Shown piece by piece: positions 4,469-54,901 of a stretch of DNA of 60,522 nt. The notes below the pieces were generated by a model. It ran no database searches. It was not told the DNA's origin and saw only the letters and a list, made by a program, of their open reading frames with translations. The position numbers were made by a program, and so were the translations under genes. This DNA is from Dimargaris cristalligena (lineage: Eukaryota), in NCBI GenBank assembly GCA_003614675.1, contig ML002243.1, positions 1-60,522 of the forward strand. The letters run 5' to 3'. Position 1 is the stretch's first letter, and each line of letters starts with the position of its first letter.

Positions 4469-7337
4469 TTACCAGGTAGTGAGACAGACTGGGTATACGG
4501 GGTGATAGATTCGGTTAAGTCGCTGACCAGAATAATCTAAGTATAAATAAAAAGGCACAATAAATTGTATAAAAATAATCATATTATAGTTTAGTAATGG
4601 CATTCGTTATCGTGATAGGGCAAGATTTCCTGTATAAACTTAAATACTGCCGGTCCTGGCCTTTATATGTCTGAAATGTGTGAGTGAATAGGAAGTGAGA
4701 TAAACGTCAGGATACTAAAAAATATCAAAGGATGTACTTACTCCCCCCAAGGAACTCAGCATTGTCAAATATGAGCGGTACCGACCAGTGTCTGCGTCGC
4801 TGTAAGGCCATTTGTTTAGCTTGATCGTTAATCGCAATGCACCCCACGGATGACGATATCGAGTCGGGAAGTGTGTGTGCGTGAACATCCGTTATTTGGC
4901 CTATACGTTAACATTGAATCGCAACAGTCAGTACCAATGTAGAAAAACGAGTATACAGAATTGCTGCGACAGTATTGGTTTAGTTGGCCAATCATGCTAA
5001 CTAAGCTGAAATGCGAGGAAGAGTCCCAAATCTTAAGGGGTATGTAGTCGACAATATGATGTAGTTTGCCCAGGCCATGCACCTATGATTTAAGACCACC
5101 AAAGTGCCGTTAGCATACTTACCGGTTACATAGTTGACCAAGAAGAGTAGTGTATGGAACCCGAATCTATAGCAAAAATGGGTACAAACAAATAACATTC
5201 AAAACGTACATGGGTTATTGAGAATCACGATACAGAATCGTTTAGTGATAATATTTTTTTACCCTTGTTCAAGTGTGGTTCAGCAAGGCAATGTAACTCA
5301 CGGCCAGCTCGCTAGGTAGCCCACGGCTTATAGGTTGGACACATTTTATTCGTTTTGTTTTTTGTTTTTTTCAAAAGGGGGGAGTGGAAGGTGATTACTT
5401 TTTTCAACTTACTTTTTAATATTGAGCTTCCGGGAAAGAAATGCACAACTCACATAGAGGCAATCCCGGTACTCGCAGTTCTAGTGACGTGTATTCGAGT
5501 GGGGGAAGCATAAAGCGGTTGTAAGATCCGTCAAATTCAGGCCATATCTATTTTTGCCGGGGGTGGTTCACTTGGCCATTATGAAACGGAGGGAATGCTT
5601 ACCTGTACAATAATAAACGAATAGTCGTAAAGTCGTAGGTCGCTCTCTTTTCGCGACAAGTGGTCAAATAAATACATTTCTACATTAAGCAATCGAACAT
5701 TAGCCTAAATGGTATGGATTCAATTCCATATCGGAAAATCAATAATTATGCATGTAAGGGTATATACGTCGATTTAGTGCACTTGACATCTTAGAAGAGG
5801 CTGTATTTAACCCAGCAACATGTCCGCCGAAAAACGATACCGGGAATAAGGCATTAAACGATAATCAGGCCACAATTAGACTACCTTACCTCCCAGGTCA
5901 TAATGCGCCCAGACCCATCCCTGACAGACGAGGCTGTTATATCGAAGCGATCGTGTCCGTCTTCCCAGAACCTTCGGGACTATGTACCAGGTATATATAT
6001 ATAAAGAATGTGTGTAAAAATTAGCAACAGTTTGAATACTATGAAAAGTAGCATCAGGTATGGTTTATTTGATACCAGAAAGTGAATCTACGTGTTCGGG
6101 CTGATGTGGATACATTCAAGGTACCATGATACACTGTAGATTCAAATGGAGGCTGTCCACCTATCCAAGCCTCCCCTCGTGGACAGTTAAACATTAGGGA
6201 AATGAATATTACAGGTACTTACGCGATCCTCGGATGATTTCTGAAAAACTGACGGAGTATCAGTCGCCTGACTATACGTCACAAATAAAATACCGGATTC
6301 TTCTTTGTATATTAATAGCCGCGGCAGGGCAGCGAACAAGCTCAGATAGACGCGGGCACGCGCCGCATATGGCCGTATTCTTAGTTGGCTGGGCGATGCA
6401 TCGGGGGATAATCGTTGAACTGCTCATCACAACGAATCGGCCAGTCCGTGACAAGAGGGATATTCGAAAAACAAAGGTATAAGTTGTAGTGAGAAAATTG
6501 ATTTAACCATACATTAATTACACAAATGGGCAAAGTTAAGAGATTCCTTAGGAGGCTTTGATCACCACTGCTATTTGACGCACAACCCGGTTTTACCCGA
6601 CCAAGGAGTCACAGTGGGAGACAGATCAGCAACGGGACACACCCGAACCCATTACCTTCATTACAGTCAATGATGTAAAACTCGGCTTCGGCGTCGCCGC
6701 TTTCGAACTTCGCTTCGGTCCAAACCCCGAGTATATTGTCCGCCTGGGTCTGCAAAAGCCCGATTTGAAATTGGGATGCGGTGGTGGTACTGAGCACGAC
6801 CTCGCAATTCCGGATGAGCCGCTTCTGGAGGTTGAATTTCCAAAAGACGATGGAATAAATGTGCATGGGCTCGAGTTCGTCAGTGGTACTATCCGGCTCC
6901 GCCACCCGAACGCTTAACAAATGGTGGCCATCTTTAGTAAATCCTAGAATTATCTGGTTGCGAAGCTCGGGGCAGTCGATGGATTGAACCGAGATGGTGG
7001 ATCTAGTAGGACCGGGTGTGGGTAGGCAGTAAATGAAGCGGTTAGAAGGTGGTAGGGAGAAGGATTGGCCTATGCATTAATGGCGGTGGTTTCATCTGAT
7101 CAGATACCTACGATCAATTGGCAGTGTGGGGCGGGTTGGGTTTTATAGAACAGGCTTTATACTCCTTTAGCTGTGCTGCAATGGGAGGACATATATGAGC
7201 CACTTAGTATAGGGGTGCTAACTCTACCTGTTGGCATGTAAATACCGACGCACAGCCGCGCTGCTTGCTCGGGCAACTAGTTCCCGGCGCTGTATATAGT
7301 CACGCACGGACTCCTGCGAAGGCTTCGGGGGCACCAT
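4469..7337 (-). CDS. DCAF15/DET1-like DDB1-CUL4 substrate receptor, 9 exons, ~394 aa
   Basis: Hand-spliced exons 7337-7228, 7002-6656, 6419-6223, 5979-5890, 5704-5603, 5480-5413, 5166-5123, 4900-4742, 4536-4469. All introns are GT-AG, phases match, total 1185 nt with no internal stop. Segments ILGFTKDGHHLLS, IYSIVFWKFNLQKRL, YDYSFIIVQNC and FHTLLFLVNYVTG resemble human DCAF15 segments as recalled. Confidence 0.7.
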
Positions 7338-7787: not shown

Positions 7788-8661
7788 CTACACTATACCA
7801 GCCTCCACTGAATGGCAGGGGCGCCGGACCGCGGATGGCGGTAGGGGAGTTAAGCTGTCCAGCGAACCCAGCCGGTGAGTAGGCCTGGTGGCCCAGCCCG
7901 AGGCATCAGGCAAGTTGGAGGGTGGCATAAATTTAGCTGGGTCATGGTTTGGTATATAAACAGGCGAATGATTAGGCAGTTGGAGAGTGACTGGAAGGAA
8001 GGGCGAAGGGGGCGGGATAGATGATAAAGGCTGAAACGGCACCCCTCCTCCTCCTTCTAATGCCCCACCGCCAGCAGCCGGGCCCATGGTGGTGCTCCAA
8101 GCGCTCTCCTCCTCGATATAGGGGAATCTAACCGCCGGACGTGGGACCGGTGGCCGTCGAATCAGCAGGCGTGAAAGAACCGCGACAAACTGGTATAGTG
8201 AAATAATGTGCATATGGGCAATATATAGGTCCGAAGGTGAGTGAAAGGGAGGGCGAAATAAATAGTTGGATAAAGGGGTGAGTCAGTGGAGACGAAGCAA
8301 ACAAAGTTGATCCGACTATCCACCCCGTGGTATAGGATAGGTTCTAATAAATAAATAAAACATTATTTAGTGCATAGTTTGCTGAATTATAAATAAACTT
8401 GAGTAACGACAAGGCGTTGGTCATACTTACCACTGCACAAACCACGGCGGTGCCCAACAGGCTGAACGATGCCACCGCCGTGGTGAGTTTGTAGTGCACT
8501 ACCGCAATGATGACCGCGACGAACAGACCTACGGCGACCATGAACCCGCTTAAGTTGATGAAGCATTGGATAATGTCCCTGCGCCGCTGACGGTCCGATA
8601 TGACGGGCTCGTCAAAGAACGAGTCGGCGTCGCTGTCTTTTTCCTTGTCGGCCGGTTTCAT
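7788..8661 (-). CDS. Hypothetical membrane protein (two N-terminal TM helices, Pro-rich tail), 2 exons
   Basis: Exon 8661-8431 (GTAAGT donor) joins in phase 0 to exon 8189-7788 (CAG acceptor). Hydrophobic stretches FINLSGFMVAVGLFVAVIIAVV and AVASFSLLGTAVVCAVFVAVL. Confidence 0.65.
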
Positions 8662-9647: not shown

Positions 9648-10423
9648 CAACAACGCGGTGAGGGGGGAGGCCCACTTACCAGTAATGGATAGAACGGCGG
9701 GGAAGGAAGGAAGGGGGGTATTCTCTTTGGAAGACGGGTCTCGGGTGATCATACCAAGTCAGGAGCCAGATAAGGGGTTTTATACGTGATCCGAATATAA
9801 TAGAAGGCGGAATTAACGGCGTCATCGGTTGATATTTAAACCGCAAAACTGACAATATATTAGGGAACCGAAACCCCAGCTACTTTGATGCAAGCACCCC
9901 ACTATGGTGGTGTATACTAGGTAGATGGCAGCCGGTTAAGGCATTGGCCGATCAAGTACATTTACCAGGGAAGGAGCCAACTAGCGGCGATGTGTGCGAG
10001 GCTCTTAAGCACTTTGCATATGAAAATAATGGGAGTAAATGGGACAAACTGTATTAATTAATTATTTTCCCGCCGAATTGGCAGGAGAAATTAATGCCCC
10101 AACCCACTCTCCCCGCACTCAACTAAAGGGAGTGTGATTTTACTAGTATCTCTCTAACTCGCTCAATATAACCCAAGGCAAGAGCGAGAAGAAGAGCCCT
10201 TGCTGTGAATTCCCCTTTCCTGGCTGATCTCGGACTGATCTAGCCGCTGCCTACGTTTACCTGTCCAACCCATCCCTTTGATTCCCAATCCCAGGCCACT
10301 CTACTACTTGTCTTTCTCTATGCTTCACTTAGAGCCTCTCCTTGATTGATTTTTCTTAGCTTTGATCCCCCCACTCCTTATTTCTCTATTTCTTTCTCTT
10401 TCTAGCCCTTGTTTTATAACACC

Positions 10424-10999
10424 ATGTCCGCCCCGCCCAATCCACTCCGCCGCCAGGACAACGGCATCGATCCGTCGCCCCGTCCCTTTGAACCCATCGA
10501 CCGCGACCCGCATTTCGCCCGTGTGGTCCGCTACTTCCGCCCCTCCGACTATGGCCTCTGGGCCGGCATGGCCGCCCTCGGCCCCGTCATTCTCCTCGGT
10601 CTCGAAAAGGTCATGCCCAGCCACGGCATCACCCGCGGCGACCTCCGCCAAGGCTTGCGGCACGCTTTCGGGGTCGGGGTATTGGGTGGTTTCCTGTATA
10701 TCTACCAAAAGAGCTCCTACCGTTTCATGGGTTTCCAGGAAAACGCCCGTGAACTGCGCATGGACCTGGCCGAGATGAAGGCCCGCGTCGCTAAAGGGGA
10801 GGAACTGTACGGCCAGAGTTTGTTGCCCCCCGATGTGCAGCGCATCGCCGCCGGTAACTCCAAGAACTCCCAGTTGTTGATGTTCTTCATTCCCTGGTTT
10901 AACCTCGTGAACCATAACCACCATGGCGTCGATACGTCCAAGTATTACGACAACGCGGAGGAGAACAAGGTTCCGTTAGCGAAGTCGGACAAGGAGTAA
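10424..10999 (+). CDS. NADH-ubiquinone oxidoreductase 21 kDa (NUXM / nuo-20.9-type) accessory subunit
   Basis: Motif PFEPIDRDPHFARVVRYFRPSDY, two TM segments, RFMGFQENAREL and PWFNLVNHNHHGVDTSKYY. Start taken at the first ATG (10424). Confidence 0.9.
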   Translation: MSAPPNPLRRQDNGIDPSPRPFEPIDRDPHFARVVRYFRPSDYGLWAGMAALGPVILLGLEKVMPSHGITRGDLRQGLRHAFGVGVLGGFLYIYQKSSYRFMGFQENARELRMDLAEMKARVAKGEELYGQSLLPPDVQRIAAGNSKNSQLLMFFIPWFNLVNHNHHGVDTSKYYDNAEENKVPLAKSDKE

Positions 11000-11590: not shown

Positions 11591-13891
11591 TTAATACTTG
11601 GACAGCAACTCGTAAGGAGACACGGTAAATATGAGCATAATCAAAATAAGTACAGAGAGAATTATCAAAGTGAGATGGAACGAACTCACGGACAAGTAAA
11701 GACTGACGCACCAACAGGCCCCGACTATGCGGTCGGTATACCAACCCAGTCGCAGTTTCAACTGCCACCAGGGGTCAATGGTGAGGCCCGGTGGCCAGGA
11801 GTCATGGCAACGGCCATCCTCCGTATCATCCTCATCCTCATCCCCGTCATCATCATCATCAGTTTGACTGAAAACATTGGTCGGATCCGCCAGGGACGGA
11901 GAGGAAGGAGCAGCCAACGAAGCAGGGGTCGTGTGGACCTGGAATAAGCCGGATACCGGTCGATGGTCCGAACTAGTGTATGTAAAATGGGCCGAATAAA
12001 ACAACGGCACAATAGCCTGCGACTCGCCTACGCCTTTCACCAGTGACTGCGCCCGGGGTGGTTCCGTAGCACCCATGTCCCTGCTCCTACTCCTATTACC
12101 CATCCCAGGCCCATGGGTCCGGCGGTGCCGGGTTGGATTGCGCCGCGATGCTGGCCGGGACCAGAACAGGATCCGGTCACACCACGACGGATTCCGTTTC
12201 TTGTAGGTGTAGATATTACACCCGACGGTGAATTTATACGTGGGGTTGAACCGGATTTGGGCCTCGTCGAAATCGGCGAACGCGGCTCCGCTCTGTTTTA
12301 CGCGGATGAGTTCGTCGGACTGCAGAAGGATTTGGAGGTCTTTGTCGCGGAGTGGGATAGCCAAAGGTTTTTGGAAGTTTTTGGTGGTGCGGTAATTGAG
12401 GTCGCCGAGGAAGAACACGTGGTCGTGGTCGAAAAGCAGATCTTCGGCTTGGCCGACTTGAAAAGTGTGGGCGGGGGAATGGGTAGAAGGACGCGAAGAG
12501 GGACGGGTCCGGGAATAAAAATCGCCCTTGAGGTCATCGCTGCTACTAAAGGAGGAGGCAGAGGAGTCGTAATCATTGATTAAGCGGGGAATTACGACTG
12601 CAGGGGGGCCGGATTTATCGGGACTGCTGTCGACTGGTGCACGGAGGTTAAAGACGAGGCGGCGGCATATTTTATTATAGTCTCGGTTGCGTTGGGCGGT
12701 TAAATGTTCGTGGGCCGTGAGATGGGCCCCAATGAAACAGAGCTTAATAGGGGCCGGGGGTATCTTCGCCTTCGTACGGGTAAACGTAAATGATGATTTG
12801 GTCGACGGTGGCACTTCCTGTTCTTGGTAGGGGGGAGGAGGATCGTCATCGAGCGTGTCGGGTGGCTGAACTCGGTCGAACTGTAAACTAATTCCAATAG
12901 CGCCCTTGAGTCCAATAAAGGCCGGACCGCATCCCACTCGGTTGATTTGGACACTCCGGGGTGCCAACATGGGTACGGGTAAAGGAACAGCGCCGTCGTA
13001 TTTCAAAGTATAGATAAACAGGAGCATCCCCGCGTAGTGATGGACAACTAAGAGGCGGTAACGGAACCCCGTCCTAGCTTCTGCGGCCGTCAGATCCACT
13101 TCCGCACTTGCATGACTGCCGGCCAGCGAAGATGAGGAGAACGATGATGATGCAGATGCAAAAGAAGCGAATGAAGGGGCGGGAATATCCGTGTTGGCGG
13201 TTGAATCACCCGCTACCGTCAGTCCCGAAGAGGTAAAGGACCAAGTCAATTCCACAGGCAGCTCGACTTCGTTATTTGTTCCCGGGCGTAGCCGGCCCCG
13301 ACTGGCCAGGTCCGTGAGCTGGTCCAGGGAATTGGTGATCATGGTCGTACACGACCGGATAAGACCATTGTTGGAGTCTAACAGCGCGGTATTCAAAGGG
13401 CCGAATTCTTGGAACGCCATACAGTAGAGGTGGGGAAGGCGAAGAAGGAGTTGGCCACAGGGCCGGGGCTGGAATTGGGGCTGGGAGGAGTCGGCGGCGG
13501 AAGTAAGTGGCGTGGAAGGCGGGGACGAGAACAATGGGAGAGGCGGTGGGGACCGCAAGGGAACCGAGGCGGCGGGTGGAAGGGGCGGGGACGAGAAGGG
13601 GTCAAGTACGTGGGGCGGTGGGGACGACCGGTCGGCAGCCACTGGGTCAACATGGGAACTGAGCTTTGGGTTGGGGTTGGAGTTAGGGTCCGAGTTGGCC
13701 TGGGTGTCGGAGCTGGGGTCGACGGCAGTTTTGGAGTCGTCTTTGAGCAGCGTAACATTGGCCAATACCCCGGCCAATAGCCAGTCGTCGAGGGGTTGGT
13801 ATGGCAAACGACTTTGCGCATTGAAGGTGCCCGTGTATACTAGCAAGTCGCCGTGGGCGGAGGTCGCTGACAGTGGTTCGCAGGCGACCAT
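11591..13891 (-). CDS. Inositol polyphosphate 5-phosphatase with C-terminal TM tail (Inp54-like)
   Basis: 5-phosphatase motifs VYTGTFN, MAFQE, GLKGAI, GAHLTAH, FFLGDLNYR, PTYKF, PSWCDRIL, SDHRPV. Hydrophobic C-terminus LTLIILSVLILIMLIFTV. Intronless. Confidence 0.9.
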   Translation of the reverse strand: MVACEPLSATSAHGDLLVYTGTFNAQSRLPYQPLDDWLLAGVLANVTLLKDDSKTAVDPSSDTQANSDPNSNPNPKLSSHVDPVAADRSSPPPHVLDPFSSPPLPPAASVPLRSPPPLPLFSSPPSTPLTSAADSSQPQFQPRPCGQLLLRLPHLYCMAFQEFGPLNTALLDSNNGLIRSCTTMITNSLDQLTDLASRGRLRPGTNNEVELPVELTWSFTSSGLTVAGDSTANTDIPAPSFASFASASSSFSSSSLAGSHASAEVDLTAAEARTGFRYRLLVVHHYAGMLLFIYTLKYDGAVPLPVPMLAPRSVQINRVGCGPAFIGLKGAIGISLQFDRVQPPDTLDDDPPPPYQEQEVPPSTKSSFTFTRTKAKIPPAPIKLCFIGAHLTAHEHLTAQRNRDYNKICRRLVFNLRAPVDSSPDKSGPPAVVIPRLINDYDSSASSFSSSDDLKGDFYSRTRPSSRPSTHSPAHTFQVGQAEDLLFDHDHVFFLGDLNYRTTKNFQKPLAIPLRDKDLQILLQSDELIRVKQSGAAFADFDEAQIRFNPTYKFTVGCNIYTYKKRNPSWCDRILFWSRPASRRNPTRHRRTHGPGMGNRSRSRDMGATEPPRAQSLVKGVGESQAIVPLFYSAHFTYTSSDHRPVSGLFQVHTTPASLAAPSSPSLADPTNVFSQTDDDDDGDEDEDDTEDGRCHDSWPPGLTIDPWWQLKLRLGWYTDRIVGACWCVSLYLSVSSFHLTLIILSVLILIMLIFTVSPYELLSKY

Positions 13892-15515
13892 GGGGCAAAT
13901 GGTAAGTGTGTAGGCGGGTGGATATGAAGGGGAGGTAGTGCAACTGGATAAAAGCAAACGGGAAATGAAGAGAGGTCAAGAGGCAATGGAGCGGAGTGGA
14001 GTGGCGAGTGAGTTAACTAGGGGTATATAGTAAGTTTGGGTAGAAGAAGGAGGGGGGGAGGCGTCACTCTAGTGTACTTAGGTAGCCCCGGCAGCGGCTG
14101 GGGAAGCTAACTAACTAGCTAGGCACGCGTTATACACGCTCTCATTTGGAACTAACTATCCATCTGTCTCGATGTCTATGCGGCCTCTCTCCTATTCTTA
14201 GCTTCCAGTGCGATGGATACATGAGCGCAGTGCACGCACTCCTTCCTTCCTTCCTCCCTCCCTAATTCCCCCGCCCAGCCTCTTTGTTATCTGGGAATCC
14301 GCGGCCTCTATTTGCCACCTTTTCCCCCTGGTGTTGTTCCTCACTGCTGCACTTCACCTGCAGACTGACCTAAGGGGTTGCCGTGGAATTTACAGGCATA
14401 TGAGGGGAGGTGTTCGGTCTGATTGTTCAAGCCCGATGCATCTGGATTCTCCCAAGCGGCAATGAAATGCGATTATACGTCGGAAGTTCGCCACCACGGG
14501 CACATCTTATATGAGTATGTGGGAGGAAGATTAGCACAATACTCCCGATGAGACAATATTAATATTTTGCCTATCGCACCTATTCTGGATTAATGAGTGA
14601 TGATGATACGTGTCACGAGGAGAACGGGTCAGTCGAAATCACCGCCTTACATTGTCGTCCATTTGGCAATTGACCACCGCTCTCTGGCCACATCACCAGC
14701 AAATAATTTCGGAGGTTGATTACAATTGTATGTCGAACAGAGCTGGTGGTGGATGGTGTCCTCCGTAAGCCGATAATAGGGATATAATTTTGAGTAACCA
14801 ATGCGACAGCTTCACCTTTACTTCTAATTGAGCCTCGATATCTCTCCACCAAGATCACCCTGACCGTCATCTTTCTGCTCTGCCCCCAAGTTACGCATAC
14901 TGCTTCTTTTGTACGTGGTATGGGCGAAATGCGTACTTCCCTCCCGATTGATTAAATACCTTGCGATGTCCGGTTCCTTTAAGGAGTAGACATCGCCATT
15001 TCTTTGGCCACATCACCCCGTTCTCATCCCTCCGGCCGGTGTAGAACCAGACTGACGGGATGGTGATAAATTCAGTGACGTCACATGACTGGAGGCACCT
15101 AGTGGAGGAGGTTCTGCGGCTTCTTCAGGAGGATAAGAAGTATTTCGATTACACGCACTCAACGTCAGAAACCAACCAACCACTGCTACATATACTACTC
15201 ACCCATTAAGAACAGTGCTTGGCTGTCCCCAGCCCATATTACCGCAGCAGGTAGAGGGCATTAGTTATATACCCAGAGAGAGACCACCACACATCATCAT
15301 TCAGCCCCAGGCGCCGCATAAACTATTAAAGAAAGAGTCCAACGCATATAACTAATACCCCCCCTCCTATTCACTTTCAGTATTCTGAACCCACCGCTTG
15401 TCTTTCCTTTCCATTGTGCCATAATTCCCCCTACTAACTTCATTACCATTGATAACTACTACCCTTTCTCATTCCAGCATACTATACCATTCCTGATTAC
15501 CGTATAGTATACACC

Positions 15516-16796
15516 ATGTCGCCAAGGCCAGCAACCTCCCCCGAACCCCCCTCTAACGAGCCTCCTCCTAAATTCCAGGTCGTCGACCCCCTTGGCGAGG
15601 GCAACCCTTCTTTCGTACCTACCGTCACTGTGTCTCCTTCGTCGTTCCCCCCTGCCCCCACCCCCAGCCCCAATCCCAAACCCACCACCACCACCCTGCC
15701 GGTCTATACTTCACCTCCTTCGCCCCCCGCGGTCACTCGCACCCTGTCCCGACGCGAACGAGCCACCCGCAACATTCTCATATCCGGTACTGGCCTAGCC
15801 ATTCTCTTCGGTTTCACCGTCCTCATCGGTACCGTTCTCAAGGAATGGTTCGTCTTGGACCAATTCGCCACTAATCTAGAGCAAACCTTAGCCCATGCTG
15901 CTCCGGGTGCTCACGGGGTGCTACGGACGGCCGATAATAGCCATGGTGGAGGAGCGGCAGGTGGTACCCTTCATAAATTAGATTCAACGGTCGGCAGCCA
16001 TCCCCCCATCGACCCTCTTCTAAATATCCGACTCACCGCCGCCCAAACCACTTGGACCCAGTACCTACTCCTGTTCTTCGCCGACAAACGCAACCCCCTT
16101 AACCGTATTTTCGCCAAATGGGGCTGGGCCTGGACCACCGCGGTGTTCTTTACATATGTCCTGGTGGTGATTAACCGGCGGCTACCGGGAACGTGGCCCC
16201 GGTTCGCCTTACGCTGGGGTATGGCCACCCTGTACTGGTATTTGCTGACCCAATGGGCATTCGGTCCCTCCTTCTTTGACCGCGTATTCGTGGGGAGTGG
16301 GGGACGGTGTGCCGCCACCGCTAATAGTAACAACGACCTTGACGGTTTTGGTGCTGGTGAATCAACCACCCAATGGAATGCGGACGCGATTTTCAGCTAC
16401 GCACAATGCCGGCGGGCCCGCGGTACCTGGACCGGAGGGCATGATATTTCGGGACACTGTATGCTGTTAGTCCATGCCTCCCTTTTTCTATGGGAGGAAC
16501 TGTCGCCCTACCTCTTCACCATCACTTTACCCTCTTTCGCCTCGTTCCACCCCGACTGGACCCGCCGCCTCACAGCGGCCCTGGTTGTGACTTTTATTGT
16601 CCTCTGGTACACCATGCTGGTGGTAACGGCTACTTTTTACCATAGTATCCGTGAGAAATTCACCGGCTTGATCTTTGGGTTCCTCTACTGGTTTGTGGCC
16701 TATTTGTATCTGTTCCCCAGTACCACGTACCCCGGTATGCCCGTGGATAGTATTTTGGACGACCCCGCTTCCGAAGAAACCGACAAGCGCAAATAA
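15516..16796 (+). CDS. SCS3: FIT family (Scs3/FIT2) ER acyl-CoA diphosphatase
   Basis: KRNPLNRIFAKWGWAWT, WAFGPSFFDRV, GHDISGHCMLL and TATFYHSIREK motifs; multiple TM helices. Confidence 0.92.
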   Translation: MSPRPATSPEPPSNEPPPKFQVVDPLGEGNPSFVPTVTVSPSSFPPAPTPSPNPKPTTTTLPVYTSPPSPPAVTRTLSRRERATRNILISGTGLAILFGFTVLIGTVLKEWFVLDQFATNLEQTLAHAAPGAHGVLRTADNSHGGGAAGGTLHKLDSTVGSHPPIDPLLNIRLTAAQTTWTQYLLLFFADKRNPLNRIFAKWGWAWTTAVFFTYVLVVINRRLPGTWPRFALRWGMATLYWYLLTQWAFGPSFFDRVFVGSGGRCAATANSNNDLDGFGAGESTTQWNADAIFSYAQCRRARGTWTGGHDISGHCMLLVHASLFLWEELSPYLFTITLPSFASFHPDWTRRLTAALVVTFIVLWYTMLVVTATFYHSIREKFTGLIFGFLYWFVAYLYLFPSTTYPGMPVDSILDDPASEETDKRK

Positions 16797-17420: not shown

Positions 17421-18689
17421 TTACAGATCCATGGGCTGGTTGGGAAGAGCACCGGCTGAGACCAGGGCATTTTCCAAGTCCTCCAGCAAATCCTCGGGAT
17501 CTTCAATACCGACGCACAAGCGAATAAGGTCCTCGGGCAAAGCCCGCTGTTGTCGCACATGGGCGGGAATACTGGCATGGGACATCTGACAGGGCATACT
17601 AATGAGCGAATTGACACAGCCGAAACTCACGCTGATACCCCACAGTTTGGTGGCTTCGACTATGCGTTCGCTCATCTCCACCTGGCCGGTTTCGAAACTG
17701 AGCACGGCACCGGGTCCGGAGGCCATAGACTTATGGAGGGCGTATTGGGGGTGGCTTGGGTTACCCGGGTAGTGGACGCGGAAGCCCCGCCGAATAAGGT
17801 AGTCGGAAATTAGGACGGCGTTGGCCTGCTGCTTTTCCATGCGGACGGCCAGGGTTTTGACGCCCCGGAGCAGCAGCCAGGAATCAAAGGGGCTGAGCCC
17901 GCAGCCGGTCGCGTTGATAACGTGGTAGAGTTGGTCAGCCACGGCGTTCGTTTTAGCGCCAATGACGCCGGCCATCAAATCGTGGTGACCGCTCAGATAC
18001 TTGGTACCCGAATGGTATACGATATCGGCACCGAGATCGAGGGGACGCTGGAGGTAGGGGGACATCATGGTATTATCCACGACGACCAGGGCGCGGGGAC
18101 AGTGTTTGTGGACCAAGTCAGCAATGGTGGGGATGTCAGCAATCTTAATCATGGGGTTGGTGGGGGTTTCCAACAAAACCATACGGGTCCGTTCGGGGTC
18201 GAGGGCCTCGATGATGCGGAGGGGGTCGGTCGTATCGACGTGGTGGGTGGTCACTCCCCCGTGGGTACCTAGGTACCCCAGCAGACGGTTGGTCCCGCCG
18301 TATAAATCGTCGCCCGCAATGATAGCCTCGCCGGCCTTGACCAGACGCAGAATCACGTCCAGGGCACTCATGCCGGAACTCACGACAAAGGCGCGCTGGG
18401 CGTGCATAATTTTGGCGAGGTGGGATTCGACATGGGAGCGGGTCGGGTTGCCGGAGCGGGAGTAGTCGTACTCACCGCTGCCGCTGGCGCTCGGTTGCTT
18501 GAAGGTGGCGGTTTGGTAAATGGGCACGGAGGCGGCATTGTAAGGGTCGCGGATGGTGGAGCCCGGACCGGTCCGACCGCAGATGTCGGTGGCGGAGGTG
18601 TCAATATAGACGAGTTCGGTCGCAGGGCGGTACCGTTTGACGGGATTGAGGGAGGGCGAGTTGGGTTCCGGAGTGAGAAGGTTGGTCAT
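17421..18689 (-). CDS. STR3: Cystathionine beta-lyase (PLP-dependent)
   Basis: YDYSRSGNPTR, SSGMSALD, ETPTNP, VDNTMMSP, PLP-lysine motif HSGTKYLSGHHD, ISVSFGCVNSLISMPC. Start taken at MTNLL (18689). Confidence 0.92.
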   Translation of the reverse strand: MTNLLTPEPNSPSLNPVKRYRPATELVYIDTSATDICGRTGPGSTIRDPYNAASVPIYQTATFKQPSASGSGEYDYSRSGNPTRSHVESHLAKIMHAQRAFVVSSGMSALDVILRLVKAGEAIIAGDDLYGGTNRLLGYLGTHGGVTTHHVDTTDPLRIIEALDPERTRMVLLETPTNPMIKIADIPTIADLVHKHCPRALVVVDNTMMSPYLQRPLDLGADIVYHSGTKYLSGHHDLMAGVIGAKTNAVADQLYHVINATGCGLSPFDSWLLLRGVKTLAVRMEKQQANAVLISDYLIRRGFRVHYPGNPSHPQYALHKSMASGPGAVLSFETGQVEMSERIVEATKLWGISVSFGCVNSLISMPCQMSHASIPAHVRQQRALPEDLIRLCVGIEDPEDLLEDLENALVSAGALPNQPMDL

Positions 18690-20272
18690 GGTGGTGGGAT
18701 AGTGGGGAGGAGGTGGTGGAGGTGGAGGAAGGTGGGTTCGGATGCGGAGTTGGAAGAGAAAAGAGAAGTAGACTGGGGAACAGAAGAGCAAGGAAGGGAA
18801 GGAAAAGGAGAAAGGCAGATATAAGGCAGAGGGAATTAATCAATACCTGGTATATAAAGCGATACGGGGTGGTGGCATTCACTCAAGTGAATAGAGGGTA
18901 TGCGTAAGTATATGCGGCAACCAGGCTTTTCTATGCTAGATTACAAAACTCGCTAAAACTAATGATTCATAATACAACCTGGTATCTTTGTAGGAAGTGG
19001 GTGGTTTGTGGTAGTGTTTGGGCCTAACGTAGGCTCTCTCTTCTCTAGGTTTTAGTATAGAAGGAGTGGGTAGCTGCTAGTCGCTATTTAGAGACCCGGA
19101 AAGAGGAGGAAGGTCACAGTCGGTGTGGAACCAATAGGCGGCCACGCCGATGGTGTGACTGGTGGTTGGCCGAACATGGATTGTTTTTACATTATGTTTA
19201 CAAAGCGAGTCGGCCGTGGGAGGAGAGTAGTGAAATATTAAGTACTGCTAATATGTTCGGGAATTGGGTTAGTTATGACCCTGTTTAGTTGAATTACCGT
19301 TAATAAATAAAATCCTCGCGAGAGATTAAATAACCCCATTTTCCTAACAACCTGATATTTACCACGTATGCAAACTACGGGCGGTAATTGTCAGTAGATG
19401 CCCCGTGCTATAGGGGGGGATATGAGATGAGAGTGGACTAATGATCGAGTATCCTCTCAACACGTACTCTTTAATCGGGCCGCCTCTGGATCTAGCAATA
19501 TTGTTTATTGTCGCATTACCCATTCATTCGCCGGCTTTCGATTGCCGGATCGCACTTATCACATGGACCCAGCGGGCTGGGCAGCATGGGGGGCCTCCGG
19601 TGACTGCTTGCCCTGACCTCGGTTGCCAGCATCTATTTTTATACGGTATGCACATACGCACAAAGCAGATGGGCGCGGATGACGACGACCAATCTGAGCC
19701 ACCACCGCCATAGCCGAACAGCCTATCCGGGCCAATCACCGTATGGAATTCGCATACATAGCAGCACCACCAATGGGACTTCAATCTGTGCGGGATAAGC
19801 AAAAATAAAATCCCATCCACGGGGAACTGGGCCACTGAAGAAGAAAGTAGAGATTATATACTATTCCTCTTCTCAACAGATAAGTAGTAGCATACTCTCC
19901 TTGTATGCGCATACATGGAATCCGAAATATAATAGGCCACATATACCCTTTTCACCACCACAAGGGGCTGCCGTGCCGTTCCAATCAAGCCTACTGTACA
20001 ACATGGCCCTTCCACCGCCCCAATCAAGTTCAAGAGTGTCCCAACAACCACACCCCAAGCCGAGGTAAAGAAAAAAAAACGACACCCTATAAAGACCCCA
20101 CACTCCCCCTCCCGCTTGTGAAAAGATAGCCCAGCAACGCATTCTCTACTTGCCTATTCCGTTCTTATTTAACCCAGCGTTTCCCGCTTTGTTGTTGTCC
20201 CCTTGCTTGGATCCCATCCCACCCTCCCTCCCTCTATCTCTCCCCATCCAACAACTGTCCACCTTTTTCACC

Positions 20273-33796: not shown

Positions 33797-34555
33797 ATGA
33801 ATAGATATAGGGGGGGGAGTTCCCCCTCGGTTAATTTCCTGACTCGTTTTGACACCCGAATCCTAATTGAATCTACCCATTTGTACGCTGATATTTTCCG
33901 AATCGAGCGGGTGGCAAAGATGCACGTAGGGTCAGAATTGATTATCCTAGAGAATGGCAATTGGTTTAGTTAGTGCCTATAGCTAATATGTATATGTTTC
34001 GGACATTGAGTATGAAAAATCAATGGTTCCAAAAATCAAAACAACTACTTAACGGTGTGAACGAATCATTAAATGTATGTATGTTGTAAATTTGGACGAC
34101 CGATTCTTGAGCATTACCAAGCGTAGAATGGGAAGGGGGGACAAGATGCTATAATAGTTGGCTCATTCTAAATATGATATTTAATTGAACACTTCTGTAT
34201 CGAGATACGGTTGTGTGATAGGTGCTATATTCTCTGCTTATTCACGTTAATCGTTGTTTCCTGAGAAAAGTGGGGAAACGGTGGGCGAATAGCTCACCAG
34301 ATATTGGAACGGATGATGTGTCTAAGGATAACGTCATAAGGCCCGTTCGTAAAATGATAATAGGCCTTATATATTATCAGCATGCCAGTTGGCTCCTCCC
34401 ACCCAGCGAGTTCCAGCAGTCCGAATTTTATCTGAACCCCCTCGTTGAAAGAAGGCCAGCCCAGCTCAGCTGGTAGAGGTATCCTTCCCGACCTTCGCCT
34501 GCTTTTTCCGTATTGCCCTCAAAACTGCCACGGGTTTTATTCTCCTGTTTCCATT

Positions 34556-37500
34556 ATGCCTTCCCGTATGCGCTACTATGTGGGAGTGGATGTCGGTACC
34601 GGTTCCGTTCGAGCGGGTCTCTTTGCCCTAGCCCCTCCACCATCCCCGGTGGAAAGAGACGAAACGGCGTCTTCGACCTGCTCGCAAGGGACTGCTGCTA
34701 GTAGTAGTAGTAGTAGTTCCGCAGCTTCCGTTCCCGCCTCCTCTTCGGCCCAAATGGTGGCCCTTCATAAACAGGCCATTACCACCCGTACCAACTGGCA
34801 CCCCGTGTTCCGAGGTCCCCCTCATTCTACTTTTTCCTCCTCCTCTTCAACCTCTTCGGAAGCCGTTAGCGTGCGTCAATGCGTCCAATCCAGTACCGAA
34901 ATCTGGCAAGCGGTTTGCCATTGTGTGCAACAGTGTCTCCAAACCGCCCAAGCGCACCACCACCGGTTACAGCAACTGCAGCAGTCACCGGAGGGGGTTG
35001 CTTTTGATGTTACCCAAGTCGCCGGGATTGGTTTCGATGCCACTTGTTCTCTAGTGGTCTTGGCGGAGCCTCCCCCAACTACGCCTACGCCCACTTCTAC
35101 TCCTACCGCCCATAATACCACCACCACCACCACTACCACTTACCCAACCCTGTCCCAGGCCCCGGCTGAACAATGGCAGCCTATTGGGGTCTCCCAGACT
35201 GCTTTAAGGGCCCGTATCCACCGACTTTGCGGGGCTGAAGGGGGGACTGGGGAAATGAACGACCATGAAGGACGGGGGGAAAGGGGCGAGAGCGGGGAAG
35301 AAGGAGGCCCCGGCTCACCGTGTCCTTTACGTCAAGAGGCCGATGGTTCCACGAAAGATGATGATGATGATGCGGCTGATAATGCTGGTGAAGATGGAGA
35401 TGCTTTTAATGTTGTCCTATGGATGGACCACCGAGCGCCCGACCAAACCGCTCGTATTAGTCGGTCATCCGTGGGAGCCCAACGGGTATTTCGGTATGTG
35501 GGGGGCCAAATGTCCATTGAAATGGAACTACCCAAGATTCTGTGGCTGAAAGAGTACTGCCTCTGGGGTGATCACGGCCATCATCACCCCGGACGCCACC
35601 AGCCCCGGCCGTCGTACCCACCCAACTCGGAGGCCCCGAACTCAAACTCAAACTTGAATTCGACCTCCGCCTCAGCCCCAGCCCCAGCCCCAGCCCCAAC
35701 TCCAACCTCAGCCGTACCGTCCGAATCCGGCCAACGCGTTTGGGATTCGATGCACTTTTTTAGTCTATCCGACTTTCTGACCTTTCGCTGTACCGGTCGG
35801 CCGGCACGGTCCACGTGTTCGCTAATTTGTAAATGGGGTTATCTGCCCCCCGGGACCGTCCCAGCTGATTCTAGTGGAGGGGGTTGGGACGGGGCGTTTT
35901 TGCGGGATATCGGTTTGGCCGACCTAACCGTTGACCACTATAAGCGGATTGGTGGCCACAGCGGTACGGCCCATACCGAAAAGGCATGGGGTGGTGGTGA
36001 TGATCATGATATTCATAATCATAATCATAGTGGTGATCCCGCGGAACTAGTCCATCGGGCCGGCGACTGGGTGGGCAATTTGACCCCCCAAGCAGCTCGT
36101 GAATTAGGGTTGACCACCCAAACCCGAGTGGGTTCGGCGGTCATTGATGCCTACGCGGGCTGGATTGGGACGGTCCTCACCATGAACCCGGCTGATGCAG
36201 CCGTTACCCCGAATCAAAACAGCCACTCCCCTAATGGCCATGCGGCTGCTTCCTCCGGGACCACGGCACTGGTAGACCAAATGACCCACCGCCTAGTAAT
36301 TACGTGCGGTACTTCGTCGTGCCATTTAGCCGCCCACCCCCAGCCCCTCTTCGTGTCGGGTATTTGGGGACCATACTACAACGTTGCCGTACCCGGCCTG
36401 TGGCTCACGGAGGGGGGGCAGAGTGCCACGGGGGCCTTGGTGGACTACCTAGTAAGCCAGCACCCGGCTTACCCTTGGCTGTATCAGGCTATACGGCAAG
36501 GCCACTCCCCGTCCGCTCTTCTATCGGGGAATCCTTTTGCCGGACAAAGTGGCCGTGGCACTGCTTGTGTAGTACCTCCTAGAGGGAAACTACAGTCCGC
36601 TAAACCTACTTCAGCCGTCTACGACTACCTTAATGCCCTAGTTCGGGAGGCGGTGGCTACCCCCTCCTCCTCCTCCCCTCGTCACCAGAGCCCCGGGTTA
36701 GAGTTACCCACACCGGTGACCCAGCTGGAGCAACCCTATCGGGGGTACTTGGATCTCATTGACCACCAAACGTACCATTTTCTCCCCGACTGGCACGGAA
36801 ATCGTTCTCCACTCAGCGACGCCAGTTTGCGGGGGGCTATCGTGGGCCTTGCCCTGGACGAAGGGTCCTCTAACGATCACGGTAATCCCCTCGCCCTAGT
36901 CAAGGTGTATCTGGCGGCCTGTATGGCCCTGGCTTACGGCACCCGCCAGATTATCGACCGTCTCACCGGGCCCCAACCCAAACCTAAGCCTAAGCAGGGT
37001 AATCTTACTACCCATCATGCGGAGGGTCCCCATGTTTCGGCGGCGGAGTTGCCGCTCGGGCAGCAGCCGAGGCATGTCATCACTGAATTAGTAATGGCGG
37101 GTGGGTGGGCCCAAAACGACCTTTTTGTCCAGATACACGCCGATGTGACGGGTCGGCCGGTTTACGTACCGCAGGTGGACCAAGGGGCCGAAGTCGTTTT
37201 GGGGTCGGCCATGTGTGGCTATGCCGCCGAGTTAGCAGCGGAGGCAATGGAAACAACGGTAGCGGCAGCGACAACAACAGTGGATGCCAAGTCACCAGCC
37301 CCTCCTACCTGTCCACTGAACGAGCAGTCCGGGGCCCGACGATCCCCTCCTAATGTCAAATTCCCGATACCCCCCCTCCCAACTCCCGGCACGGACCCGC
37401 AGTTCTTGCTCACCGCTATGCGACATATGCGCCCCCCACCCGGCCGGGTGGTCCTGCCCTGTCTAACGGACCGGGAACGAACTATCCATGGGCGCCGGTA

Positions 37501-37570
37501 TCAAGTCATGTGTCGAATGCAACAGGACCAAAAGGCCTACCAAGCGATTATGGCTGGACAGTCGTTGTAG
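34556..37570 (+). CDS. FGGY-family carbohydrate (D-ribulose/pentulose) kinase with long low-complexity insertions
   Basis: YYVGVDVGTGSVRA, GIGFDATCSLVV, VLWMDHRA, EMELPKILWLK, IDAYAG, GTSSCH, WLTEGGQSATG, PDWHGNRSP. Intronless; start taken at ATG 34556. Confidence 0.92.
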   Translation: MPSRMRYYVGVDVGTGSVRAGLFALAPPPSPVERDETASSTCSQGTAASSSSSSSAASVPASSSAQMVALHKQAITTRTNWHPVFRGPPHSTFSSSSSTSSEAVSVRQCVQSSTEIWQAVCHCVQQCLQTAQAHHHRLQQLQQSPEGVAFDVTQVAGIGFDATCSLVVLAEPPPTTPTPTSTPTAHNTTTTTTTTYPTLSQAPAEQWQPIGVSQTALRARIHRLCGAEGGTGEMNDHEGRGERGESGEEGGPGSPCPLRQEADGSTKDDDDDAADNAGEDGDAFNVVLWMDHRAPDQTARISRSSVGAQRVFRYVGGQMSIEMELPKILWLKEYCLWGDHGHHHPGRHQPRPSYPPNSEAPNSNSNLNSTSASAPAPAPAPTPTSAVPSESGQRVWDSMHFFSLSDFLTFRCTGRPARSTCSLICKWGYLPPGTVPADSSGGGWDGAFLRDIGLADLTVDHYKRIGGHSGTAHTEKAWGGGDDHDIHNHNHSGDPAELVHRAGDWVGNLTPQAARELGLTTQTRVGSAVIDAYAGWIGTVLTMNPADAAVTPNQNSHSPNGHAAASSGTTALVDQMTHRLVITCGTSSCHLAAHPQPLFVSGIWGPYYNVAVPGLWLTEGGQSATGALVDYLVSQHPAYPWLYQAIRQGHSPSALLSGNPFAGQSGRGTACVVPPRGKLQSAKPTSAVYDYLNALVREAVATPSSSSPRHQSPGLELPTPVTQLEQPYRGYLDLIDHQTYHFLPDWHGNRSPLSDASLRGAIVGLALDEGSSNDHGNPLALVKVYLAACMALAYGTRQIIDRLTGPQPKPKPKQGNLTTHHAEGPHVSAAELPLGQQPRHVITELVMAGGWAQNDLFVQIHADVTGRPVYVPQVDQGAEVVLGSAMCGYAAELAAEAMETTVAAATTTVDAKSPAPPTCPLNEQSGARRSPPNVKFPIPPLPTPGTDPQFLLTAMRHMRPPPGRVVLPCLTDRERTIHGRRYQVMCRMQQDQKAYQAIMAGQSL

Positions 37571-39523
37571 GTTGGGCGAGGAAGTAACCCCCCCCCCTTC
37601 ACACTCTCGTGGTCCAGTATTTTCTTTAAAAAAATGGGATTTGAATAAAGCAATTGTTTTGGGGCTAATAATTATAGACCTTTTACCCCTCTCTGCCCTA
37701 TTGATCGAGGGGGACGCCGACACCACGCCTTGGGTGGTATAGCTGGGGACTTTATATTTTTTATTGAAGGAGTAGGTTGAAACTGGCTAATGTAATTGGC
37801 GATAAGTACGTGGCCTGTGTGTGTGTCTGTATAAACCCCCACTGACTAATATAATCCTTGGTTTTCGGAAGTTACGGATAGATTGGGCAGTGCCATTGTA
37901 ATTATTATCGAGGATGGGCTCAGGCTTTTCAACTATTGCCCCTGCTTTATATCTCACCGATGTAATATAAGATCCGAGAAGATTCGGACTGTAAGCCTTC
38001 GGTCAAATATCCAAGCTTAGAGTGGTCAGGAGGGGGGCAGAGGAGGTGGAAGGAGGGATATCGGAAACCCACCTTCGGCTTCCATGGCGGGGTTCGGAAA
38101 AATGCAGAGTAGTTCCAATTAGTCATGACGCCTCCCTCTCCCTCTCTTTCAACTCGAATAAAATAGTACATTAGTGTAATGGCCCATGCTTAGCCCTATA
38201 CATTTATATCCGGTTGCGCAGTAAAAGTTACACCAAGATATGAGCCGCGGCCATACTAACCGCGAGGGCCACACCATGGACTTATAGGCGGAATTTTGGA
38301 CCACTCAATGGACCCGGGCTCTGATATATATATATATATTCCGGGAACCCCCGTTTCAGAGGACAAAGGATCTGGGAATCATATGCCCAACGAAGGGTCT
38401 TTAGCCTTTTCGTCCGATCCCTCTTTCATCCCTCCCCACCCATCCAATAGGCGGGTACGGCCCCCAAAAATAGCTCGAGGCCCTCAATGAGGCCAGCGAA
38501 CATCCAATGCTTAGCAGCCCTTTTCCCTTCCTCCAGCTCTATTCTGGCAAATGGTTTAAGCCAAACTCCGCTGTATTCGATCTCCTACCTTCCCGTCCCC
38601 TCTGCTATACTCGCCAATTAGATATTGATGAGATCCGTGGCACAGAACAGGTGTACTTTATTCGCATATCCTTGGGCTGACCCAATTGACTGGTGTCGCC
38701 TTAGATTTGAGGGTACAGGGAAAGAGAAGGTGGAAAAAGAAGAGCCCAAGGATCTCTGTAAGTGGGGAGAGGGGGATAATTTAGGGAAAGGTCGAGGAGT
38801 TCCGAGCCGGCTAGCCATAGGCCCACACTATCCCCACCTCCTTGCTTTGGCTTCTTTCGATGCCTTCGGTGGAGAATATTACCCGATCCCGCCTCCCTTT
38901 GTTTAGTTTAACCAAAAGGGGCGTTCCTTCGATTTGCATAGTTTTAGTTCCTGCGCTAATTTTTAGGTGCGGCGTCGGCCACTTTGGTACCTTCCCGAAA
39001 ACCCTACCACTCAACAGGAACCATTCCCGCCCTATGCCCCGAAAAATGAACATATATAAATGGTCCCCCGCTCCCCTCTTCTGCTATTCAAAATCAACCT
39101 TACCACAGCCGATATTCACCCAGTCTAACACCAGTTTATTAATTGGAAGTCAACCGCCACTTATTTATATCACCAGCATTTGGTTTTTGAAAACGTTTCG
39201 CCCTATTATTCGTTTTGACCATTAATTCTACTTGTGATTTACATATAGTTTTGTCTATTCTTTTTTAGATTGATCCAGCCTAAAAAATAATATATATACT
39301 GGCGGCTTTCATTTTGAATTTTGACTATCCAGTTTAATAGATTTTTCGAGACCTGCCGGTCTGTGTATATAGGTTAATTTTTATAGATATTACTTTTTAA
39401 CTCGTCTTACTCTACCGTATCTAGCCCACTGCCACTAAATTATTTACCGTTTTACTTTTTTAAAACCCTGTTTTTACTTAACCCCCCGACCCCAGCCCAA
39501 AAAACCACCTTACTTTTATCATC

Positions 39524-40243
39524 ATGAAGATCCTCCTCGCTTACGTTGCCCTCCAGACCGTTTTGCCCGGCTATTTGGCCAGCCCGTCGCCCGCTCAGGC
39601 CACTGGTGGAATGGTACCTCTACATCGTCGGGACCTTGGTGGACCCTCTTCGTCAACCTTAGCCGCGTCCACCCCTTCCATTCAGCTCCAGAAGCGCAGC
39701 CCCTGGTTCAACCGGGAGGGCGAAACCGACACTAGCTCGTCCGACACCGATACTGACGAAGAGAACGTCCGCTACCCCGTCGAACAATCCAGTGCAGGCT
39801 TAGTGCGCCGCGGGCTTCGACTCCAGAAGCGCAGCCCCTGGTTCAACCGGGAGGGCGAAACCGACACTAGCTCGTCCGACACCGATACTGACGAAGAGAA
39901 CGTCCGCTACCCCGTCGAACAATCCAGTGCAGGCTTAGTGCGCCGCGGGCTTCGACTCCAGAAGCGCAGCCCTTGGTTCAACCGGGAGGGCGAAACCGAC
40001 ACTAGCTCGTCCGACACCGATACTGACGAAGAGAACGTCCGCTACCCCGTCGAACAACCCAGTGCAGGCTTAGTGCGCCGCGGGCTTCGACTCCAGAAGC
40101 GCAGCCCCTGGCTCAACCGGGAGGGCGAAACTGACACCAGCTCGTCCGACACCGATACCGATGAAGAGAACATCCGCGACACTGTGCCATTGGCGCGCCG
40201 TGGACTTTTCCGGCGTAAGTTTACGATGACGCGCGAAATCTAA
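39524..40243 (+). CDS. Secreted Kex2-processed repeat protein (peptide precursor)
   Basis: Signal-peptide-like MKILLAYVALQTVLPGYLA; four units each preceded by LQKR and followed by RR; 45-aa period. Confidence 0.85.
   Translation: MKILLAYVALQTVLPGYLASPSPAQATGGMVPLHRRDLGGPSSSTLAASTPSIQLQKRSPWFNREGETDTSSSDTDTDEENVRYPVEQSSAGLVRRGLRLQKRSPWFNREGETDTSSSDTDTDEENVRYPVEQSSAGLVRRGLRLQKRSPWFNREGETDTSSSDTDTDEENVRYPVEQPSAGLVRRGLRLQKRSPWLNREGETDTSSSDTDTDEENIRDTVPLARRGLFRRKFTMTREI
39686..40210 (+). repeat. 135-bp tandem coding repeat, 3 full copies + 1 diverging copy
   Basis: CTCCAGAAGCGCAGCCC starts at 39686, 39821, 39956 and 40091. Copies 1-2 appear identical; copies 3-4 carry a few substitutions. Confidence 0.95.
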
Positions 40244-43161: not shown

Positions 43162-44629
43162 ATGGTGGATTCACAGGCGGTCAAGGCCACGTCTGAGGAG
43201 CATAGAGAACACCGGCTTTATGCTTTAAAGACTTTCATTGCTGGCGGTGTCGCCGGTTGTGCCGGTAAGTACCCCACCCTCCGTAAGGACCATTGTGTAG
43301 TTCCTCCATGTAGGTTCACCCTCCTGGCTGAATTGTCAATGAGAGCATTCCTTAGGGCGGATTGGTCAGACCCTCTTCTCCTCTCCCCTGGGTCCGGGCA
43401 GGGACTTAGCCTGGCGGTCCCAATGTGCCCCCTCTGCTCGCAAACTAACCCGCAGTTGATTCTCTCTTTTCTTTTGGTTATAATGCTCTAAATGCCGGCA
43501 CACTTGAACCGCCCTGAAGGGAAAACCGTGGTTGCTCCATTGGACCGGGTCAAAATCCTATTTCAGGCCAACCAGCCCCAGTTCCAGAAATATGCCGGTT
43601 CTATGACTGGCGTAGTACGTGCCGGCCGGGAAATTGTGGCTACTCAGGGCGTGTCGGGTTTGTACCGGGGGCACTCCATGTCCCTGCTGCGGATTTTCCC
43701 CTACGCGGCTATTAAATTCATGGCCTACGAGCAGATTCGACTGGTAAGTGCCGAGTTTCGGAGGGGCTATTTAACATTTAGTATTTATCCTTGATTAGGG
43801 ATACTATCGGCACAGTTAGGCAAGGGTGTTCGCACAGCTACTATTCGGCCTAATTAGTATGTACGTCAATCGTCACTCACCCCGCCCATTTCCCGTACCT
43901 GCTAATACCCTTCCGCCCCACCTTTACTAGATTTTAATGCCAACGGCCTCCCATGAAACGGACATACGAACCGCCTTGGCCGGGTCGCTGGCGGGTGTCT
44001 CCTCAGTTATCGTCACCTACCCCTTGGAGCTCATCCGAGTCCGTATGGCCTACGATACGACCCAGGGGGTCCGCAATAAGGTTTTAAAGACACTGCGTGC
44101 CATCTACGGCGAGTCCGGATACAAGTCTACGCTGTTCCGGCACCCTATTCGCAATTTCTACAGTGGGTTTGGGTTCACCATTATGGGTATGATGCCCTAC
44201 GCGGGGGTCTCCTTCTACACCTACGAATCCCTTTACCAAGCGTGTGTGAAGCGGTTTCCCGAATTGACCGTGATCAAACGCCCCCAAGATCTAGCGAATG
44301 CCGGCGCCTCTTCCAACAGCAAGAAGAAGCGGAAACGGGGACCCCGGTTGAACTGGTGGTCCGAGCTACTCATAGGTGGTACGGCGGGTATCATCGGCCA
44401 AACCATTTCCTACCCGTTTGAAGTAACCCGGCGGTGGATACAGGTAGCGGGCGTCCGTAATCCCGGGTCTAAGCCTAAACCCATGCAAATCATAGGCGAA
44501 ATTATGGCCACCAAGGGAATTCGCGGTTTCTACGTCGGACTTAGCATCGGATACATTAAAGTAGCACCCATGTCGGCCGTTGCCTTTTACGTTTACGAAC
44601 GTATGAAGTACCTACTCAAGGTTGAATAG
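43162..44629 (+). CDS. LEU5: Mitochondrial carrier, CoA transporter type (Leu5/SLC25A16/A42), 3 exons
   Basis: Exons 43162-43264, 43520-43743, 43931-44629. Carrier signatures [52 protein letters not shown]. Confidence 0.88.
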
Positions 44630-54500: not shown

Positions 54501-54901
54501 ACTCGGACCCGATGGGAAGGAGCCGCACTGGGAGCGGCGCCCTTATAAAAGTCCCTGGGCCTGCCCATGTAATAGCGGAGTGTAACTTACATTATCAGCC
54601 TCTTTTCCTACCTTGCTCTAGTTGGATTCGTATAAGTCTCCTTTTTCCCCGCCCAACTAGCTTTAGCTTGTTATCTCGCCAACCCCTTTGCACGCCGCGT
54701 CCTACGGAGCCCTACTGTTATTGGCCCGTATTTATTCTCCGAAGCACAGACGCCTCAGTGGCCAATAGCCAACCCCTTTTGCTGCTGCTTCAGTTCTTTA
54801 TTAACCGACGCGGTGCTCCTGTTCTCCACCTCGACGCCTACTTCCCTGTACATTGGGATAGGGTCCATTGACCGCACCCCTCTAGCCTTAGTTTAGCCAG
54901 C

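Follow-up and report, generated by a model that had tools for sequence, protein, structure and literature searches.

A multi-exon gene of the fungus Dimargaris cristalligena probably encodes a compact DCAF15-family substrate receptor

Introduction

Few ligases are exploited by molecular glues in the clinic; DCAF15 is among them, and what it does naturally is known only in part. A structural report on the human protein (10.1101/737510) describes a helix-loop-helix, at residues 35-59, that enters the BPA-BPC cleft of DDB1 and lies just before the core, a body with a non-canonical beta fold distinct from typical WD repeats, and disordered residues at 1-31, 272-385 and 398-416. The reported cohesin link of DCAF15 runs via an internal loop; residues 274-382 are needed for binding of SMC1A and SMC3, according to PMC11222469. 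A second receptor to be compared is DET1 (Pfam PF09737), the CRL4-DET1-COP1 adaptor. According to 10.1101/2024.06.08.598067 it binds DDB1 by a helix-loop-helix most similar to those of DCAF1 and DCAF15, with DDA1 similarly placed, and the human protein is given as a non-canonical propeller, with structures deposited, in PMC12808801. Here we describe a minus-strand gene within positions 4469-7337 of Dimargaris cristalligena contig ML002243.1 (the window analysed is the whole stretch of 60,522 nucleotides). The product of this single-copy, intron-rich gene is probably a compact substrate receptor of the DCAF15 family, about 390-400 aa long, for the CUL4-DDB1 (CRL4) ubiquitin ligase.

No fungal DCAF15 is described in the literature searched by title and abstract; orthology tables in supplements, subscription papers or the InterPro taxon list may already record one. 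What is new is the probably compact fungal member; the family, and the automatic label of the N-terminal part of this protein, are already known.

Results

Exon 2 matches the DCAF15 family

The family signal lies in the second of the nine exons laid out below. Exon 2 scored 37.7 bits against Pfam DCAF15_WD40 (PF14939; E 2.4e-9, curated cut-off 23.9), the match being placed at about 6738-6998, that is aa 39-125, and at profile positions 15-102 of 213. All four sequences returned from the PDB at E<=10 were DCAF15 (E 0.045-0.12), with exon 2 aligned to about residues 77-122 of the 601-aa human chain; known DCAF15 structures are PDB 6Q0R, 6PAI, 6SJ7, 6UD7 and 8ROX. DCAF15 also ranked first by ESM Atlas features (0.93, 203 of 256 shared), and it came first in an Atlas structure search with the model of the 279-aa protein deposited for this locus (predicted template-modelling score 0.41), with a template-modelling (TM) score of 0.68 by query over 124 aligned residues within 142-266. 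One such locus was found in the genome. The comparisons support DCAF15-family identity for exon 2; we infer homology to DCAF15 for exons 3-9. The DCAF15-like receptor proposed in the initial annotation is thus borne out at exon 2 by Pfam, PDB and Atlas, and finds no match in exons 3-9.

Gene model and exon-intron structure

The initial annotation had read the region as nine exons joined through eight GT-AG introns of matching phase into a stop-free protein of 394 aa. This model was rebuilt exactly from the sequence (1185 nt, 394 codons plus TAA, zero internal stops), and all seven fungal peptide motifs quoted for it are present in the protein in the order given. Reading frames were compared with a codon model trained on long open reading frames (ORFs) of the same genome, and boundaries were also compared with those of a crude homology-free parse, a hand-weighted gene finder. 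The features are:

7228-7337, minus strand, exon 1 (aa 1-37); the ATG at 7337 is the first in-frame ATG after an in-frame stop
7003-7227, minus strand, intron 1 (225 nt, GT-AG); acceptor common to the deposited model
6656-7002, minus strand, exon 2 (aa 37-153); PF14939 match and strong coding signal
6420-6655, minus strand, intron 2 (236 nt); both ends uncertain, other acceptors and donors being possible
6223-6419, minus strand, exon 3 (aa 153-218); firm end at a GTAAGT donor, start uncertain, model frame best of three
5980-6222, minus strand, intron 3 (243 nt); room for another small exon, alternative parses exist
5890-5979, minus strand, exon 4 (aa 219-248); firm end at a GTAAGG donor, start and frame least certain of all
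5705-5889, minus strand, intron 4 (185 nt); an alternative acceptor would start exon 5 at 5679
5603-5704, minus strand, exon 5 (aa 249-282); GTAAGC donor, model frame best
5481-5602, minus strand, intron 5 (122 nt); recovered by the homology-free parse
5413-5480, minus strand, exon 6 (aa 283-305); GTAAGT donor
5167-5412, minus strand, intron 6 (246 nt)
5123-5166, minus strand, exon 7 (aa 305-320); GTAAGT donor, exact in most top homology-free parses
4901-5122, minus strand, intron 7 (222 nt)
4742-4900, minus strand, exon 8 (aa 320-373); GTAAGT donor, model frame best
4537-4741, minus strand, intron 8 (205 nt)
4469-4536, minus strand, exon 9 (aa 373-394 and TAA); closes the frame, which the codon model does not favour here

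The exon 1 donor at 7227 is a non-consensus GTAGAG, the deposited model having its donor at 7245 instead. Exon 4 has a possible alternative in a longer exon that runs from 6038 in a different frame, and the starts of exons 3-5 are ambiguous in the predicted splice model. Exon 6 was exact in four of the six top homology-free parses at one setting and in all six at the other. That the locus holds a multi-exon gene is very likely; the exact 394-aa splice form is a tentative proposal to which we give somewhat less than an even chance.

Splice signals, coding signal and chance controls

Six of the eight model donors start with GTAAG, and these are every GTAAG word on the minus strand of the span; shuffled spans held 1.96 such words on average, and at least six in 15 of 1000 shuffles. 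The four GTAAGT words on the minus strand are all used as donors, and four such words were reached in one shuffle of 1000. Because stop-free chains of at least 350 codons also arose in 124 of 300 resamples made from the region by a Markov model, the stop-free chain alone is weak evidence; the long chains of the resamples, however, used at most three GTAAG donors (0 of 300 matched the gene's six), and the real minus and plus strands gave six and three. Intron lengths were regular, seven of the eight falling at 185-246 nt, similar to two introns of the DDB1 gene in the same genome (275 and 204 nt) that were fixed by alignment to a sister species. U12-type donors near the gene numbered six against 6.0 expected, with no sign of minor introns.

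Trained on a small set, the codon model favoured the model frame in eight of nine exons, all but exon 9; trained on a larger one it did so in seven of nine, exon 4 dropping out as well. Its per-base score was higher in exons than in introns, again except for exons 4 and 9. Exons 6 and 7, and the donors closing exons 3-7, were recovered by the homology-free parse. When the middle of the gene was left free under loose splice filters (with exons 1-2 and 5-9 kept in place and 5679 used in place of 5704 as the start of exon 5), 5142 other stop-free paths were obtained. No 394-aa model with a two-exon middle was found with exon 5 fixed at 5679; the acceptor at 5704 yields one.

Results weighing against a full-length DCAF15-family receptor

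Several results weigh against this reading. Exons 3-9 carry a weak coding signal, at 0.00 to -0.11 bits per base. The homology-free parse did not find the model starts of exons 3-5 and gave shorter models the better score (60.0 vs 35.3); since this parse also split exon 2 within the Pfam match, it was judged unreliable and given little weight. That match itself spans only 88 of the 213 profile positions, and exons 1 and 3-9, each searched alone where long enough, gave no DCAF15 match in searches of low power. No orthologue was found among annotated proteins, although DDB1 of four other Dimargaritales is present in the same collection at 53-60% identity. Lastly, the second rank by Atlas features (0.92) went to a plant-rich cluster, 21% of whose members carry Det1.

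The weak 3' coding signal, the frequency with which resamples spliced stop-free and the absence of a homologue in sister genera (annotated-protein searches) would all suit a decaying or truncated DCAF15 gene, in which only exons 1-2 are translated, or a recent pseudogene, with the 3' chain a relic or partly coincidental. We find this quite unlikely, since the six consensus donors are intact and all phase-compatible, the introns are of regular length, exons 3, 5, 6, 7 and 8 favour the model frame, and in DDB1, too, genuine short exons are skipped by this annotation source.

The single-exon searches behind these statements were as follows. Exons 3, 4, 5, 6, 8 and 9 gave neither a DCAF15 nor a Det1 match in Pfam, these being short pieces with low power; exon 4 alone and exon 9 had no Pfam match at all, and exon 7 (15 aa) is below searchable length. 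Exon 3 found nothing in Pfam, PDB or ESM Atlas, exon 5 found no DCAF15 in PDB, exon 8 returned only unrelated proteins from PDB at E<=10, and exon 9 had no PDB match. The second half of PF14939 (positions 103-213, with the strands of the aryl-sulfonamide pocket) was unmatched by exon 3 or exon 4 alone in Pfam. In Pfam profiles, then, the proposed family label holds through DCAF15_WD40 on exon 2 and recurs on no other exon searched. The alignments to human DCAF15 offered with the initial annotation divide likewise: the first two are seen in the PDB alignment, and the three C-terminal ones were reproduced by no search. The latter look plausible against the human sequence and serve as leads only.

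Homologues of exon 2 were looked for among proteins of 204-2000 aa, where one of 134 candidates was retained and was the locus's own model, and among proteins of 63-203 aa, where none of five candidates was retained. The deposited 279-aa model had three matches among 1.84 billion representatives, itself and two for its upstream membrane part. Against this sequence human DCAF15 reaches no more than 12-17 bits; the protein searches are therefore blind to distant members and are no proof of absence in other fungi; loss, fast divergence and missing gene models are all compatible with the absence of annotated orthologues. A metagenome locus (L007, the one locus of 102 pattern matches) was rejected as chance, being a short peptide match in DNA without a comparable gene. 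Contamination as the source of the gene was also rejected, given its host-type introns, its two accessions, its occurrence on two contigs and its ordinary eukaryotic neighbours.

The Det1-bearing cluster in second place would be expected if the gene's product were a receptor of DET1 type, or belonged to a third lineage within one superfamily of DCAF15 and DET1, serving as adaptor for another ligase or E2 and not as a DCAF15 orthologue; the likeness of the DET1 helix-loop-helix to those of DCAF1 and DCAF15, cited above, points the same way, as would a DET1-like C-terminal tail. That tail, however, was proposed in the initial annotation and reproduced by no search. The Pfam Det1 family matched no single exon searched at E<=1 or E<=10 (short exons having lower power), no DET1 chain stood among the PDB matches of exon 2 or of the deposited 279-aa model (the presence of DET1 in the searched PDB copy being unconfirmed), and by structure the Atlas pointed to DCAF15 rather than to Det1. 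We consider a DET1-like identity unlikely.

Exon 1 and the CRL4 partners

The hydrophobic moment of exon 1 peaks at aa 3-17 and 20-33, and helix is predicted for it in a low-confidence AlphaFold model. Exon 1 may thus form two short amphipathic helices, a candidate DDB1-binding helix-loop-helix in the place matching that of the human protein. For the putative DDB1-binding N-terminal helix put forward in the initial annotation, exon 1 found no PDB sequence match, any solved DDB1-binding helix included. Complex prediction for exon 1 with DDB1 propeller C (residues 808-1253 of P0004, the deposited DDB1 of this species; propeller A absent) gave no answer, with a score of 0.02 in both of two runs, and was counted neither way. 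Our own single-sequence structure models were too poor for fold comparison.

DDB1 (E 3e-64 to PDB DDB1) and CUL4 (E 1e-144, vs 1e-88 for CUL3; among four cullin matches) are both encoded in the genome. Genome scans for DDA1 (PF10172), Det1 (PF09737) and DCAF17 gave zero candidates each and were uninformative. A true DCAF15 homologue that works outside CRL4, as a free beta-scaffold, would account for the very long branch (the 12-17 bits to human DCAF15 come from single-sequence search) and for an exon 1 that resembles no solved DDB1-binding helix in sequence; it seems rather improbable, in that exon 1 retains the expected position and two amphipathic helices, and DDB1 and CUL4 are at hand.

Separately, a fourth, divergent propeller gene of the DDB1/CPSF1/SF3B3 family (L005; G000:C285:22944-26345) was seen beside DDB1, an SF3B3-like and a CPSF1-like gene. 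Yippee-Mis18 matches were seen at G000:C320:24348-24653 and G000:C671:5345-5491, one of them above cut-off.

The deposited model is a chimera

The deposited D. cristalligena protein of 279 aa (RKP39792.1 / KAJ1989374.1 / UniRef100_A0A4Q0A329) comes from the same locus and is identical to our model across exon 2 and most of exon 1. It carries two NCBI accessions, occurs on two contigs and bears the automatic UniRef name [quoted passage not shown]. Its residues 1-77 come from 8661-8431, residues 78-101 from about 7686-7615, residues 100-149 from about 7394-7245, and the rest from 7004-6612; it then runs into intron 2 and ends at a stop at about 6609, without exons 3-9. As the true gene it was rejected, since it joins the first exon of an upstream membrane-protein gene, spurious pieces and exons 1-2. 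The description of the gene as hidden and easily missed by annotation is correct for exons 3-9, which the annotation lost, and incorrect for exon 2, which was already deposited under a DCAF15 label. The upstream gene is:

8661-8431 and 8189-7788, minus strand, two exons of a gene for a small membrane protein of 210 aa with its own stop at 7788

Its intron is 241 nt (GTAAGT-CAG). The protein has a proline-rich tail; no Pfam family reached cut-off, and its two homologues P0002 and P0003, both unnamed, match this part only.

Gene-model errors of this kind are not rare in this annotation, as the deposited DDB1 model (P0004) also misses a real exon: about 64 residues of propeller A, encoded by exon 2 and the first part of exon 3, are left out of it, and the DNA for these is present at L006:4663-5352 (minus strand). 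The DDB1 gene also shows a frame shift relative to P0004 at L006:1913-1965 (G000:C695), in a short homopolymer; this is probably an assembly indel, and similar errors could affect other genes of the assembly.

The indisulam link

Along with PDS5, an RBM39-like protein is encoded in the genome. Gly268 and Met265 of RBM39 are described as critical for recruitment by indisulam in 10.1101/737510. In a gapless comparison of RRM2 anchored on Glu271-Pro272, the fungal RBM39-like protein carries Leu in place of Gly268 and Asp in place of Met265, with Arg267, Glu271 and Pro272 kept. With Leu and Asp at these positions a native indisulam ternary complex is not expected, and the indisulam link appears, from the sequence comparison, unlikely to carry over natively to the fungus.

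Neighbouring genes

By Pfam, the neighbours in the window are ordinary eukaryotic housekeeping genes and form no functional cluster with the DCAF15 gene:

725-1606, arylesterase
10406-10999, complex I 21-kDa subunit
11591-13975, endonuclease/exonuclease/phosphatase
15456-16796, FIT
17421-18839, Cys/Met PLP enzyme
34436-37570, FGGY kinase
43931-44629, mitochondrial carrier
46251-48284, DNAJC11

Two further ORFs of the window are recorded here. The one at 39482-40243 (plus strand) combines a hydrophobic N-terminus with 3.6 copies of a 135-nt repeat, near-identical at 97% match, whose 45-aa units are each bounded by KR/RR dibasic sites, and has no Pfam match above cut-off; it resembles a Kex2-processed repeat peptide precursor. 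The one at 54872-58966 (plus strand, 1364 aa) has BK_channel_a and Slo-like RCK domains above cut-off and is a BK/Slo-type potassium channel.

Discussion

If the gene encodes a DCAF15-family receptor, as we think probable, the compact protein would dock on DDB1, and a beta-rich core made by exons 2-9 would offer substrate to the CUL4-bound ubiquitin-conjugating enzyme (E2), leading to ubiquitination and proteasomal removal as expected from the family. To judge from its length, the protein would lack the long disordered middle loop of its human counterpart. Lacking this loop, which in human cells binds cohesin SMC1A, it would likely bind its substrate through the folded core instead; the fungal protein is accordingly not expected to reach cohesin via a loop, although PDS5 is present.

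A wider view may be offered as speculation, and we hold it to be doubtful as a whole: the gene could represent a minimal, pre-animal DCAF15, a folded core without the cohesin loop, retained by a few early-diverging fungi and concealed by faulty gene models. In that case an ancient natural substrate would occupy the core groove, which in humans is the aryl-sulfonamide site, and the protein would join DCAF15 and DET1 in a receptor superfamily older than the animal-fungus split. A loop-less fungal member, if true, would date the family before that split and reveal its ancestral surfaces, and it would provide a small, naturally ordered construct for finding core substrates. The present analysis corrects a chimeric database entry and changes no known mechanism, in an organism that is hard to work with.

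Compared with the described systems, the fungal sequence is very distant from human DCAF15, and shares with it a predicted helical N-terminus before the core. The 394-aa model has no WDxR-like motif, in line with a fold unlike that of typical WD repeats, and WD40 Pfam matches are absent from every exon searched. At 394 aa it is about 200 aa shorter than human DCAF15 (about 600), a difference in keeping with loss of the disordered stretch 272-385 of the human protein, whose ordered residues number about 440, close to the fungal length. A compact, loop-less architecture is therefore probable, as far as length can indicate. DET1, second to DCAF15 in the Atlas feature search, differs in its helical E2-binding cup, which the fungal protein seems too short to hold. 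The gene is thus probably a fungal member of the known DCAF15 family, and not a new kind of system.

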